Below the pieces are notes generated by a model. That model was not told the origin of the DNA, did not search any database, and saw nothing but the letters and a program-made list of their open reading frames with translations. Shown piece after piece: positions 6,369 through 12,456 of a DNA stretch of 27,235 bases. Position numbers and translations under genes: made by a program. The stretch's first letter is position 1, and the number at the start of each line of letters is the position of its first letter. Source of the stretch: Escherichia coli (lineage in GTDB: Bacteria > Pseudomonadota > Gammaproteobacteria > Enterobacterales > Enterobacteriaceae); NCBI RefSeq assembly GCF_003334385.1, contig NZ_QOWN01000058.1, one strand, 5' to 3'.

Positions 6369-7259
6369 TTAATACTCGAGAATGCCGTGCGCGACGGGCA
6401 AATAGCGCAGAGAGAAATAGAGAGTGTCTTTACCGCAAGAGGAACGTTTCGCTAACAGCGAGGCAATTTCTGCGTCCGGTTTCGGTTTCGCTGTAAAGGT
6501 TTTGCCTTTGCCGGCGACAAAAAGTTCATAAACAACGCCGCTGGCAGGGGCGGGACTTTGGCAATCGGCGCTGGCCTGTAAATAACGTTCACGCTGTTCA
6601 GCGGTCAGTTTATCCACGCCGCTGCCATCCTGTACCCAGACATTAACGCCGGTTGCTTTAACGTGTTCCAGCAGTTGGCGATAGCCATCGGGCGACATGT
6701 TTCCGGCGAAAAAACTACTGATATAAACCGGTTTTGCTGAAACATCGCTAATCAGCCGCTGCGCGTTGTTTAACCATGTTAGCAAAGGCTGACGGGCGGC
6801 TTCGCTGCGCCAGTTCAGGTCGTCAATTTCCGCGCTGATGTACCAGCCATCCGGCGTTATGCCAGGCGCGGCGCTCCATAATCTGGCTTGCTGGAGATCG
6901 GCAGCCAGCAGGCGATTAAGATAGCTTTCCAGCGCTGCGGACGACTGTTTCTGGTGCATAAAAAATTCCGGATCGGCGTTCAGCCCGACAATAAGCTTCA
7001 GACCAGCCTGTTGCGCAGCTGCGGCCCGCTTAAACAATAACGTGCGCTGTTCTGGCTGGGTAAATGCATCGCCGTAACGGGTCCATTGCAAAACAAGGGT
7101 ATCGAAGCCTTGCAAACGTAACTGACTCATCAGCCCCTGCCACTGGGTATCGGTAACCTGACTATCTCGGTTTTGTGGTTGCCAGATAATACCTTTCATC
7201 GCAAAGGAAAAAGGGCTGACCAAAAGCAGTGTCAGCAATACGAAAATGAACTTACGCAT
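6369..7259 (-). CDS. ybcH: YbcH, secreted protein of the nfrB-nfrA-ybcH operon, 296 aa
   Basis: ORF with N-terminal signal peptide (MRKFIFVLLTLLLVSPFSFA); its ATG directly abuts the nfrA stop (TAAATG), indicating translational coupling. Confidence 0.85.
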   Translation of the reverse strand: MRKFIFVLLTLLLVSPFSFAMKGIIWQPQNRDSQVTDTQWQGLMSQLRLQGFDTLVLQWTRYGDAFTQPEQRTLLFKRAAAAQQAGLKLIVGLNADPEFFMHQKQSSAALESYLNRLLAADLQQARLWSAAPGITPDGWYISAEIDDLNWRSEAARQPLLTWLNNAQRLISDVSAKPVYISSFFAGNMSPDGYRQLLEHVKATGVNVWVQDGSGVDKLTAEQRERYLQASADCQSPAPASGVVYELFVAGKGKTFTAKPKPDAEIASLLAKRSSCGKDTLYFSLRYLPVAHGILEY

Positions 7260-10232: not shown

Positions 10233-12456
10233 TTTCGGACTCCAGTTGCGCAACCTGTTCTGTGTTTAAACCTGCTTTGAGTAATAGTGATTGCATCGAA
10301 ACTTGTAATTCGCGTTGAATTGTCAGGACGCGATCCAACGTTTCCTGGCTGATAACGCCTTCGGTGACCAAAAACTTGCCGAGCGGCAGAGAACTGCGTT
10401 CATGGCGCAATAACAACACGTTAATTGCTGAACGATTAATATGACCGAGCGTGGTCAGTATTTCGGCGAACAGGAACTGATGCGGCACATATTGCCGCCA
10501 GATTTCACCGGCCTGCTGTTCCGTGAGCCACTGATGCTGAACCGCATTGTACAACATTGCCCGCGGATCGTGACCGCGTCGGCGTGCATACCAGTGACGT
10601 AACCCTGTGACAATTTGTCCCCGCAGAACAATGACGTAACGCACTTTGCGTCCGACTTTACGCGTCAGGGCCGCCAGCGAAACCGGGTCAATACCATCTT
10701 CACTGCCGACAATTAACTCGTCATTTTCCAGACGCAGCGGCAGTACCGCATAATGCAGCGCCACGGAGGCCGGCATTTCGGCAATCAGCGAGGAAGGGAT
10801 CTGCCAGGCATCGATGGATTCCCACGCCACGCCGTTTTGCTCTGCCAGCGCCTGTGCCAGCTGCTCGGCGCTAATCAGCCCCTGCATCAGCATTGAACCG
10901 CCCAGGCGTAGACCTTCGACGCGATTACGCAGTGCTGTATCGAGTTGTTCTTCAGTGATGACCTGATTTTCCAGCAGAATTTGACCTAACGGGCGCAACG
11001 AGCGGGTATCGCCAGTCACGCTGGGGAAGTCATGCGTTGTTTTATCCCACGCCACGCGACGTGGATCGCCGTGTTGAAGTACCTGTTTTAGCGCGCGCCA
11101 GTTGGCCATGAAGTTAATCAGGTTGCCCCAGAAAAGACGCAGGACGGAAAGCAGCCCCTGCGTCAGGCCGTAGTAGCCAGTAACGAAAATCACCCGCTGC
11201 ACGATGCGGTTAACCATCAAACCAAAGTTTAGCCACAGCAGGGTCATTAACCATGCGCTGCCGCTGAAAATAGAAAGGAAATGCCAGGCATCGGGCCACA
11301 AACTTTCATACGCCAGCAACAGCAAAAGCTGGATCATCACCAGCATCGCGAGGAAGCTGACAAAGTTACTGATTGCCCCTTTGCGGTCGCGCCAGAGAAA
11401 GTAGTTCAGCGTCAGGCTGGAGGTCCATTTATGGGTTTTAAAGCCTTGGAAAACAATGCCGATGATCCAGCGGGATTTTTGTCGAACCGCAGTCGAAAAG
11501 GTATCGGGGAAATATTCGCGCACGCAGATCATGTTTGATGTCCGCGCGTGCTGTAAAAATTTACGCTGCTCGCGTTCTTTGGCTTCGTCCACCACCGGAA
11601 AACGGACAAAAATTTCCGTCATACCTTTTTCTTTCAGGCGGAAGCCAATGTCGTAATCTTCAGTAAGACTCTGCACGTCGAAAGCAATACCGTCACCGTC
11701 AGCTAACAGTGCGGTCACGGCGCGGCGGCTGAAACAGGTGCCGACGCCTGCGCTGGGCACTTGTCCGGCGAGGGCTTCACGCACCGGAACATCTTTGCCA
11801 TGCAGCTCTGAAAACTCATCAATGTAAGTCATGCTGGTGAAGTGCGTCCATTCGCGTTCGAACGGATACACCGGGATCTGAATCAGATCTTTACGCTCGA
11901 CCAGATAGTTGAACAGACGCAATTCCATCGGTGAAATCACATCTTCGGCGTCATGCAGAATAAAACCAGCAAAAGCGAAATTGGCGCTACGCTCAAATTG
12001 GGTGATGGCGTCCAGCACGTTGTTCAGACAGTCGGCTTTGCTGGTGGGGCCAGGACGCGCGCAGACTACCTTATGCACATTCGGGAAGCGAGCGCACACT
12101 TCGTCAACATCACGCTGAGTATCGGGGTCGTTGGGGTAGGTGCCAACAAAGATATGATAGTTTTCGTAGTCGAGCGTGGTCGCCGCCAGCTCGGCCATAT
12201 TGCCGATGACGCCCGTTTCATTCCACGCCGGAACCATAATCGCTAACGGTTTTTCATCTGGTTTATACAGTTCGCGGTAACTCATTCGCGGGTAGCGGCG
12301 ATAAACACTCAACTTGCGTTTAATGCGGCGTACCCAGTAGACGACATCAATAAAAAAATCGTCCAGCCCGCTGATGAACATGATGACCGCTAACGTTATC
12401 GCGATTACTTTTAAGCCGTAGAGCCAGGTAGCAAAAACATCAAGAAGCCAGTCCAC
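10219..12456 (-). CDS. nfrB: NfrB, inner-membrane family-2 glycosyltransferase with C-terminal c-di-GMP-binding (MshEN-like) domain, 745 aa
   Basis: ORF MDWLLDVFATWLYGLKVIAI... with GTG start; stop overlaps the nfrA start by 14 nt; C-terminus carries two repeats of an LG-x2-L-x4-I-x3-QL-x2-AL-like motif. Confidence 0.9.
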   Translation of the reverse strand: MDWLLDVFATWLYGLKVIAITLAVIMFISGLDDFFIDVVYWVRRIKRKLSVYRRYPRMSYRELYKPDEKPLAIMVPAWNETGVIGNMAELAATTLDYENYHIFVGTYPNDPDTQRDVDEVCARFPNVHKVVCARPGPTSKADCLNNVLDAITQFERSANFAFAGFILHDAEDVISPMELRLFNYLVERKDLIQIPVYPFEREWTHFTSMTYIDEFSELHGKDVPVREALAGQVPSAGVGTCFSRRAVTALLADGDGIAFDVQSLTEDYDIGFRLKEKGMTEIFVRFPVVDEAKEREQRKFLQHARTSNMICVREYFPDTFSTAVRQKSRWIIGIVFQGFKTHKWTSSLTLNYFLWRDRKGAISNFVSFLAMLVMIQLLLLLAYESLWPDAWHFLSIFSGSAWLMTLLWLNFGLMVNRIVQRVIFVTGYYGLTQGLLSVLRLFWGNLINFMANWRALKQVLQHGDPRRVAWDKTTHDFPSVTGDTRSLRPLGQILLENQVITEEQLDTALRNRVEGLRLGGSMLMQGLISAEQLAQALAEQNGVAWESIDAWQIPSSLIAEMPASVALHYAVLPLRLENDELIVGSEDGIDPVSLAALTRKVGRKVRYVIVLRGQIVTGLRHWYARRRGHDPRAMLYNAVQHQWLTEQQAGEIWRQYVPHQFLFAEILTTLGHINRSAINVLLLRHERSSLPLGKFLVTEGVISQETLDRVLTIQRELQVSMQSLLLKAGLNTEQVAQLESENEGE

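Follow-up and report, generated by a model that had tools for sequence, protein, structure and literature searches.

Synthase-dependent exopolysaccharide systems such as Bcs for cellulose (BcsA/BcsC/BcsZ) and Pga for PNAG (PgaCD/PgaA/PgaB) have in common with the Nfr system of Escherichia coli a c-di-GMP-gated, processive family-2 glycosyltransferase (GT2) synthase in the inner membrane and an outer-membrane exporter combining TPRs with a β-barrel. Nfr departs from both in its c-di-GMP receptor, which is an MshEN domain instead of PilZ (BcsA) or the PgaC-PgaD interface; in its substrate, probably UDP-ManNAc; in its accessory protein, a DUF4434 member where Bcs and Pga have GH8 or GH153; and in consisting of three genes only. 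The operon, nfrBA-ybcH, was described in K-12 in two mBio papers (Junkermeier & Hengge 2021, PMC8669469; Sellner et al. 2021, PMC8669472), which reported its 14-nt overlap, its binding of c-di-GMP, an exopolysaccharide model and its role as receptor of phage N4. [quoted passage not shown] This domain polymerizes UDP-ManNAc, supplied by WecB; the product, called “N4 glycan receptor” (NGR), is probably a polymer of N-acetylmannosamine. The chain exits via the TPR-plus-β-barrel outer-membrane protein NfrA, and N4 and some other phages bind the glycan first and NfrA second.

We analyzed a 27,235-nucleotide stretch of E. coli DNA (the window; contig NZ_QOWN01000058.1 of assembly GCF_003334385.1), in which positions 6369-12456 are occupied by three intact minus-strand genes, nfrB, nfrA and ybcH. 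Over all 6088 bases this segment is 100% identical at the DNA level to K-12 MG1655, C600 and J53, the reading frames are free of frameshifts and premature stops, and the segment is present in 5244 of 5426 complete E. coli genomes. All three proteins score above their NCBIfam equivalog cutoffs, and K-12 and the best-matching strain, SCU-104, share the RefSeq WP accessions of the products. Compared with K-12 nfrBA-ybcH, the DNA, the proteins, the overlap and the flanking genes envY and cusS are all shared, and the host background alone differs. Taken over its full length, the window is not a K-12 sequence: it matches strain SCU-104 best, and outside about 5500-13000 identity to K-12 becomes mosaic. 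The locus is thus almost certainly the chromosomal E. coli nfrBA-ybcH operon, encoding a c-di-GMP-gated, synthase-dependent exopolysaccharide system, and nothing that we found contradicts this identification. A first-pass annotation made from the sequence had already named the operon and its synthase-dependent secretion function; its comparison with the published NfrB/NfrA work fits in every element, and its proposed domain check (GT2, MshEN, TPR) agrees with Pfam for NfrB and NfrA. Because the operon is annotated and has been studied experimentally, a chance-based test would be beside the point. The system is known and published, the re-identification is correct, and as a re-identification it offers the specialist nothing new. 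Two readings are absent from the literature that we searched, namely NfrB as a two-module c-di-GMP receptor and YbcH as a retaining glycoside hydrolase with activity; taken as a whole, this view is possible yet on balance doubtful.

All three genes read on the minus strand. The nfrB gene runs from 12456 to 10219 (745 aa; GTG start 12456-12454, TAA stop 10221-10219), nfrA from 10232 to 7260 (990 aa; ATG 10232-10230, TAA 7262-7260) and ybcH from 7259 to 6369 (296 aa; ATG 7259-7257, TAA 6371-6369). For nfrA we use the ATG at 10232; the program-made list of open reading frames starts it further upstream, at a TTG at 10253. The overlap of nfrB and nfrA that had been read from the sequence covers 14 nt (minus strand, 10219-10232, ATGAAGGAGAATAA) and is the same as that stated for K-12 (PMC8669469), and the stop codon of nfrA is followed at once, with no spacer, by the start codon of ybcH as TAAATG (minus strand, 7257-7262), again as first annotated.

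The three genes would form one transcript from the cusS-nfrB intergenic region (minus strand, 12457-12605), whose 149 bp hold the nfrB promoter and 5′ UTR. A search for the sigma-70 consensus in 12457-12605 upstream of nfrB gave no match. FliA dependence of the operon has been reported (PMC8669469); the best sigma-28 match (TAAAGTTT-N11-GCCGATAA type) scores 11/16 and lies inside the 3′ end of cusS. Sites of that score occur about 100 times on the two strands of the window, which is the background frequency, so the published dependence can be assigned to no particular site. Transcription probably ends just after ybcH at a candidate weak intrinsic terminator (minus strand, 6332-6358), a 12-bp hairpin (GGUAAGUCGGGU-ACG-ACCUGGCUUACC) followed by UCUUUCGCUCU, which begins 11 nt past the ybcH stop and has a weak, interrupted U tract. 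This hairpin was seen by folding only, as a simple terminator scan downstream of ybcH returned nothing, and a scan with Rfam gave no match inside 6369-12456.

NfrB is the inner-membrane family-2 glycosyltransferase that serves as Nfr/NGR exopolysaccharide synthase, with an MshEN c-di-GMP receptor at its C-terminus. It matches NCBIfam equivalog NF008411 over residues 7-728 (1332.7 bits, cutoff 1170), and Pfam places GT2 at 70-382 (Glyco_trans_2_3, E 2e-40) and MshEN at 542-628 (E 9e-14). The processive-GT2 signatures H-D169-A-E-D172, TED (265-267) and QKSRW (326-330) are present; the D169 site reads DAED and escapes a strict D-x-D regular expression, though it is published as the DxD residue. 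The described MshEN consensus, RLGxx(L)(V/I)xxG(I/F)(L/V)xxxxLxxxLxxQ, occurs in two tandem 24-residue copies with a short spacer (Wang et al. 2016, PMC5013675). In NfrB we find such a pair at 489-512 (8/11) and 517-540 (11/11), separated by 4 residues; of 2000 shuffled controls, 2 reached a score of 9 and none exceeded it. This first module (residues 489-540; minus strand, 10837-10992) corresponds to positions 1-53 of the 53 in NCBIfam NF053729, “c-di-GMP_motif” (66.4 bits, cutoff 38), so the MshEN motif holds on careful alignment. Its best Foldseek matches are the c-di-GMP-bound PilF GSPII-B domain and MshE, with TM 0.72-0.74 to the ligand-bound structures 5htl and 8pdk. NfrB shares the tandem 24-residue pair with MshE (V. 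cholerae) and PilF (T. thermophilus) and differs from them in being fused to a glycosyltransferase instead of a secretion ATPase, in its spacer of 4 residues instead of 5, and in lacking the leading Arg and trailing Gln in the first motif of each of its modules. The experimentally critical L490, G491, L518, G519 and L537 lie in module I, and all residues mutated in the two operon papers, PMC8669469 and PMC8669472 (D169, D267, W330, L490, G491, L505, L509, L518, G519 and L537) are present. The identical fragment 414-745 binds c-di-GMP with a Kd of 1.0 µM (PMC8669469), and the specificity for and interaction with DgcJ were published for this same NfrB system (PMC8669469, PMC8669472).

The first-pass annotation had counted the motif twice in the C-terminal region of NfrB. 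Its GT2 and MshEN domains and the tandem pair are confirmed, and the count is too low. NfrB appears to contain two 53-residue MshEN-type modules and thus four 24-residue motifs, with module II at residues 662-714 (minus strand, 10315-10473; motif IIa at 662-685 and motif IIb at 691-714). By itself, fragment 629-745 matches NF053729 at 46.4 bits (cutoff 38, E 2.5e-12), and hhalign aligns the profiles of the two modules over 53 columns with a probability of 98.4% (E 8e-15). BLASTP of residues 483-629 against 629-745 produced no alignment, and the repeat becomes visible only by the NCBIfam HMM and by profile-profile comparison. Column conservation in 28 homologues shows module II to be conserved family-wide, and in the AF2 model the helix pattern repeats there (pLDDT 90.3). 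Unlike the MshE and PilF domains, module II is modeled as a bare 53-residue unit without the α/β subdomain. That a single protein may carry several MshEN modules has a precedent in PilF, whose chain 6f8l is matched in 3 stretches; a possible third NfrB module at about 719-742 was rejected (5/11, not conserved). The operon papers speak of a single MshEN domain and do not discuss a second module (PMC8669469, PMC8669472). In E. coli, motif IIa reads L-F-A at the consensus R-L-G. Since Ala here takes the place of the Gly that module I needs, c-di-GMP binding by module II is perhaps absent. The module may add either another site for nucleotide or a surface for docking. Its conceivable roles are to bind a further c-di-GMP, to pair with its counterpart in another NfrB protomer, or to dock DgcJ; if true, any of these three would lead to the switch-like, local activation seen genetically. 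A second MshEN-type module bears on how a 1-µM receptor responds to local c-di-GMP.

NfrA lies in the outer membrane, where it serves as export channel and as the protein that N4 binds as a receptor. Its 990 residues comprise a signal peptide, a periplasmic TPR-rich part and a C-terminal NfrA_C pore domain: the N-terminus (MKENNLNRVIGWSGLLLTSLLSTSALA) is signal-like, the chain ends in ...GVHW with Trp as last residue, and Pfam matches NfrA_C at 809-977 (E 1e-67) in addition to TPR_19 and TPR_14. The protein scores 1889.5 bits against NCBIfam NF007302 (cutoff 1223). Aromatic residues make up 13.2% of positions 809-990 vs 7.9% of positions 1-700, which together with the domain matches and PMC8669472 bears out the annotated TPR-rich periplasmic part and aromatic-rich, barrel-like C-terminus. 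The domain matches predict an outer-membrane-pore architecture for this barrel, in agreement with PMC8669472.

With synthase and exporter matched by Pfam, the candidate third component of the synthase-dependent system, YbcH, has a predicted glycoside-hydrolase-like fold. YbcH (296 aa) is a Pfam DUF4434 protein with an N-terminal hydrophobic anchor or signal, modeled as a glycoside-hydrolase-type (β/α)8 TIM barrel (pLDDT 88.5). The model points to a hydrolase of the periplasm, comparable to BcsZ or PgaB, since Glu144 lies within predicted strand 138-146 (strand 4) and Glu245 ends predicted strand 241-245 (strand 7), and both are invariant across 35 sequences. The alternative, that YbcH has a hydrolase-like fold but no hydrolase activity and acts in the periplasm as a scaffold or by binding carbohydrate, is a genuine possibility, if not one to which we incline. 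It accords with the wording “putative scaffold” in PMC8669469 and PMC10211494, with the residue before E144, an Ala where the classical “NE” motif of clan GH-A has Asn, and with the lack of a sequence-detectable relative of solved structure or assigned activity; neither single-sequence nor family-profile searches returned a solved structure, and no sequence-level link to a CAZy family was found. Against it stand the two glutamates, which are placed on strands 4 and 7 as in the catalytic sites of the 4/7 (GH-A) superfamily, the gathering of invariant residues at the C-terminal ends of the barrel strands, and the top structural neighbors, namely the hydrolase domain of PgaB and enzymes with mannanase, mannosidase or galactosidase activity. 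To our knowledge, moreover, every other synthase-dependent system has a hydrolase-type enzyme (BcsZ, PgaB, PslG, PelA, AlgL). YbcH is dispensable for N4 plating (PMC8669472), as a scaffold could be, and is partly needed for the motility phenotype (PMC8669469, PMC8669472); this pattern fits an accessory enzyme and is no proof of catalysis. As an active retaining glycoside hydrolase, YbcH would trim or release the ManNAc polymer. If so, it would found a new hydrolase family (DUF4434) attached to the NGR pathway and provide the enzyme that Nfr has so far lacked in comparison with the systems for Bcs, Pga, Pel, Psl and alginate.

Two further points of interpretation concern the gene junctions and the nature of the phage receptor. 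Stop and start codons overlap or abut at both junctions, the geometry of a coupled operon, and the 14-nt overlap and the TAAATG suggest that the genes are probably translationally coupled, which the first-pass annotation had stated as fact. Neutral gene packing, with each gene translated independently from its own Shine-Dalgarno sequence, seems to us rather unlikely, even with GGAG or AAGG placed 7-11 nt upstream of every gene: AAGG 7 nt before the GTG of nfrB, GGAG (10243-10240) inside nfrB and 7 nt before the ATG of nfrA, and GGAG (7274-7271) 11 nt before the ATG of ybcH. The last of these spacings is long and favors termination-reinitiation over independent translation, and the authors of PMC8669469 positioned a tag so as to spare nfrA translation initiation. 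In two distant genomes, one with a WecB-like epimerase adjoining the homologous locus, the order GT2-MshEN / TPR-NfrA_C / DUF4434 is kept with overlaps of 1-7 nt. The exact geometry varies (14 and 0 nt in this operon, against 4 and 7 nt and 1 and 1 nt in the distant loci L004 and L006, respectively), as packing would allow, yet junctions of 0 to -14 nt are retained in all three lineages examined. For the receptor, the older view holds that NfrA and NfrB are protein receptors or an injection conduit only, with no polysaccharide and with GT2 and MshEN irrelevant to the phage. According to earlier work as cited in PMC8669469, the N4 tail sheath protein gp65 binds NfrA directly, and the ManNAc-polymer structure of NGR is still a postulate of the literature. 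Even so, we consider the older view very improbable: the point mutants D169A, D267A and W330A in the glycosyltransferase and G491L in MshEN abolish N4 plating at unchanged NfrB levels, WecB is required and the remaining ECA pathway is dispensable, and the operon lowers motility at high c-di-GMP (all PMC8669469, PMC8669472). These published genetics already strongly imply an Nfr-dependent ManNAc polymer to which N4 virions bind. Synthase-dependent polysaccharide secretion stands as published and as first annotated. The annotated role of the system as N4 receptor is likewise published, and needs completing in that the secreted glycan is the initial receptor, followed by NfrA. With an intact, K-12-identical nfr operon, this natural isolate is genetically competent to display the NGR glycan, which lets N4 and some other phages bypass the O-antigen, a point of practical use when phages are selected against a given host. 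N4 infection of this non-K-12 strain depends also on O-antigen, capsule, DgcJ and WecB, all encoded outside the window.

The location of the operon just outside a prophage had been singled out as notable in the first-pass annotation. The position is real: aligning the attL/tRNA region of strain SCU-104 with the window by blastn located the attR of a lambdoid (DLP12-type) prophage at 5335-5381 (plus strand), a 47-bp exact copy of the tRNA-Arg (argU) 3′ end, 988 bp from ybcH with envY in between. A tRNA scan found no gene; attR is a partial tRNA copy only. The closeness follows from the argU integration site nearby and is in that sense not notable. We rejected a meaningful prophage neighborhood for the receptor operon, which lies outside attR, has a host-like GC content (51-57% vs 36-44% in the prophage cargo) and is identical to K-12 although the prophage-side DNA differs; no functional link between prophage and nfr operon is supported. 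In K-12 the DLP12 remnant occupies the same place, whereas the adjacent argU prophage here looks full-length.

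The three genes of the nfrB-nfrA-ybcH operon (6369-12456) lie on the minus strand, and the ORF list together with a direct reading of the sequence placed each of them. nfrB runs from a GTG start (12456-12454) to a TAA stop (10221-10219) and encodes 745 aa; nfrA extends from ATG (10232-10230) to TAA (7262-7260; 990 aa), and ybcH from ATG (7259-7257) to TAA (6371-6369; 296 aa). Read directly, the junctions show a 14-nt overlap between nfrB and nfrA (ATGAAGGAGAATAA) and the nfrA stop abutting the ybcH start as TAAATG, so the layout described in the first-pass annotation is exact to the base. 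We looked for frameshifts and internal stops in nfrB, nfrA and ybcH and found none, leaving the reading frames intact. Shine-Dalgarno-like motifs precede each start: AAGG 7 nt upstream of the nfrB GTG, and GGAG 7 nt and 11 nt upstream of the nfrA and ybcH ATG codons, respectively. Directly 3' of the ybcH stop, folding revealed a 12-bp hairpin (6358-6332) followed by a weak U tract, which may act as the transcript terminator. A consensus search located no promoter site for nfrB, and an Rfam scan found no RNA families within the operon. The gene order GT2-MshEN / TPR-NfrA_C / DUF4434 also occurs in two distant genomes, one of which carries a WecB-like epimerase gene immediately upstream. There, the junctions overlap by 4 and 7 nt in one genome and by 1 nt each in the other; thus, tight junctions are conserved and their exact geometry is not.

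NfrB, NfrA and YbcH all score above the NCBIfam equivalog cutoffs. The domain architecture originally read from the sequence, a family-2 glycosyltransferase joined to an MshEN-like c-di-GMP-binding region in NfrB, was recovered by Pfam (GT2, residues 70-382; MshEN, residues 542-628) and by canonical 24-residue c-di-GMP motifs at 489-512 and 517-540. The GT2 signatures D169, TED 265-267 and QKSRW 326-330 are present, and every MshEN residue mutated in the literature is kept. An AlphaFold model of NfrB 444-745 (pLDDT 90.3) gave c-di-GMP-bound PilF GSPII-B and MshE as its best Foldseek matches. For NfrA, the proposed TPR-rich part and aromatic-rich C-terminal part correspond to several Pfam TPR matches and to NfrA_C (residues 809-977); the protein has a signal-peptide-like N-terminus, a C-terminal third rich in aromatics, and Trp as its last residue. 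YbcH is covered by DUF4434 (residues 21-291).

Exactly this operon, including the 14-bp overlap, has already been described (Junkermeier & Hengge 2021, PMC8669469; Sellner et al. 2021, PMC8669472). In that work, NfrB 414-745 binds c-di-GMP with a Kd of 1 uM; N4 plating is lost in the glycosyltransferase mutants D169A, D267A and W330A and in the MshEN mutant G491L, and partially lost in G519S; DgcJ is a specific activator and physical partner; WecB is required while the rest of the ECA pathway is not; expression is FliA/FlhDC-dependent and favoured at 37 °C; and a two-step adsorption model has N4 engaging the glycan first and NfrA second (PMC8669469, PMC8669472). In later work the ‘N4 glycan receptor’ has the status of an established receptor, through which some phages bypass the O-antigen. 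The proposed role as a polysaccharide secretion system that doubles as the phage N4 receptor agrees with both reports (PMC8669469, PMC8669472), and this published work on the same operon thus supports the interpretation and makes the finding an already known one. The operon is confirmed as a known system, identical to the K-12 reference. What remains novel are two computational proposals, a second MshEN-type module in NfrB and a hydrolase-like YbcH.

The first concerns the C-terminal end of NfrB, where a third strong motif match at 691-714 scored 10/11, a score not reached in 2000 shuffles. Scanned alone, the fragment 629-745 matched the 53-residue NCBIfam ‘c-di-GMP_motif’ model at 46.4 bits (E 2.5e-12; curated cutoff 38 bits), with NfrB 665-714 covering model positions 4-53. 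In an alignment of 28 homologues with identity down to 28%, the profile of module I (486-543) matched that of residues 656-718 with a probability of 98.4% (E 8e-15, 53 columns), and the two modules share a column pattern: the first motif of each has neither an Arg at its start nor a Gln at its end, and in the second motif Gly3 and Gln24 are nearly invariant. The short-long-short-long helix pattern likewise occurs twice in the structural model. In motif IIa (662-685), E. coli and its close relatives carry Ala in place of the consensus Gly, which is kept in 17 of the 28 homologues. That G491L blocks N4 shows module I (489-540) to be required in vivo. These sequence comparisons point to a second MshEN-type module (662-714), for which nucleotide binding is putative.

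The second concerns YbcH, which AlphaFold, using 35 homologues, models as a (beta/alpha)8 barrel (pLDDT 88.5). Its invariant residues sit at the C-terminal strand ends, with E144 on strand 4 and E245 ending strand 7. In the 4/7 superfamily (clan GH-A), the acid/base and the nucleophile occupy the end positions of strands 4 and 7. The classical ‘NE’ motif is absent from YbcH, and we found no solved structure among its sequence-level relatives. YbcH is predicted to be the periplasmic glycoside hydrolase of the pathway, a counterpart of BcsZ, PgaB-C, PslG or PelA, and not a scaffold alone. YbcH is not needed for N4 plating, and other phenotypes are only partially YbcH-dependent (PMC8669469).

The 6088 bp of operon DNA match E. 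coli K-12 MG1655, C600, J53 and others with 100% identity, and the RefSeq accessions of all three proteins are shared by K-12 and the best-matching strain. The stretch is present in 5244 of 5426 complete E. coli genomes, in 5049 of which at least 80% of it lies in one piece. In the PGAP annotation the nfrB gene (10219-12456) carries the symbol ‘nrfB’, that of the nitrite-reductase pentahaem cytochrome gene, with the correct product name. Taken whole, the window is not K-12 DNA: over the leftmost 6.4 kb it is 100% identical to strain SCU-104, and comparison with the K-12 locus (L001) gives a mosaic, with zero differences at ~5500-13000 and ~22000-27235 and ~1.5-2% divergence at 3909-5500 and 13000-21500 (cusS through cusA). 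This pattern points to recombination tracts along the cus locus. Between cusC and cusF, a ~125-bp K-12 insert (L001 24887-25018), which we take to contain the ERIC/IRU core (reading GTGAATCCCCAGGAGCTTACATAAGTAAGTGACTGGGGTGAGCG on the opposite strand), is absent here at 16255-16261; because of this absence the cusC C-terminus differs (459 vs 457 aa).

The operon was also said to lie just outside a prophage, and the attachment site bears this out. The best-matching genome carries, integrated at tRNA-Arg (argU), a lambdoid prophage of ~46.8 kb (record coordinates) that runs from intD through head, tail and tail-fibre genes. The attR (5335-5381, plus strand) is a 47-bp exact duplicate of the argU 3' end between ompT and envY, not called by ARAGORN because the tRNA is only partial. 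Inside the prophage are ompT (3959-4912) and, to the left of it, the cargo genes; envY and the nfr operon lie outside, attR being 988 bp from the ybcH stop. This boundary coincides with the switch to 100% K-12 identity and with a rise in GC from 36-44% to 51-57%. envY (5425-6186), outside attR, has a GC content of ~44%, like the prophage cargo, with 51-57% reached only from ybcH onwards; the gene may have been acquired earlier at this same hotspot. In K-12, the argU site is occupied by DLP12. Operon and prophage are neighbours because of where the argU integration site lies, and we found no functional connection between the two.

Between the tail-fibre-assembly gene (end ~222) and attR lies a four-gene stress cluster (345-2555, minus strand), which is therefore prophage cargo: a KGG-repeat protein (2376-2555), two DUF892 proteins (1797-2294 and 1254-1757) and a manganese catalase (345-1232), in an order that is presumably that of the Salmonella yciG-yciF-yciE-katN operon. 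The K-12 tfaX'-appY segment is missing here (205-3012 and 3816-3908 vs L001 10815-12543), and the stress cluster, a different insert, occupies the prophage end. Only ompT and a ybcY-like methyltransferase (3060-3728), intact here and frameshifted in K-12, are shared with K-12 at this end. The two Rfam matches, both outside the operon, are IS009 (1-182, plus strand) within the tail-fibre-assembly region, its 5' end cut at the left edge, and, near the right edge, the sok antitoxin RNA (26842-26997, plus strand), which adjoins hokE.
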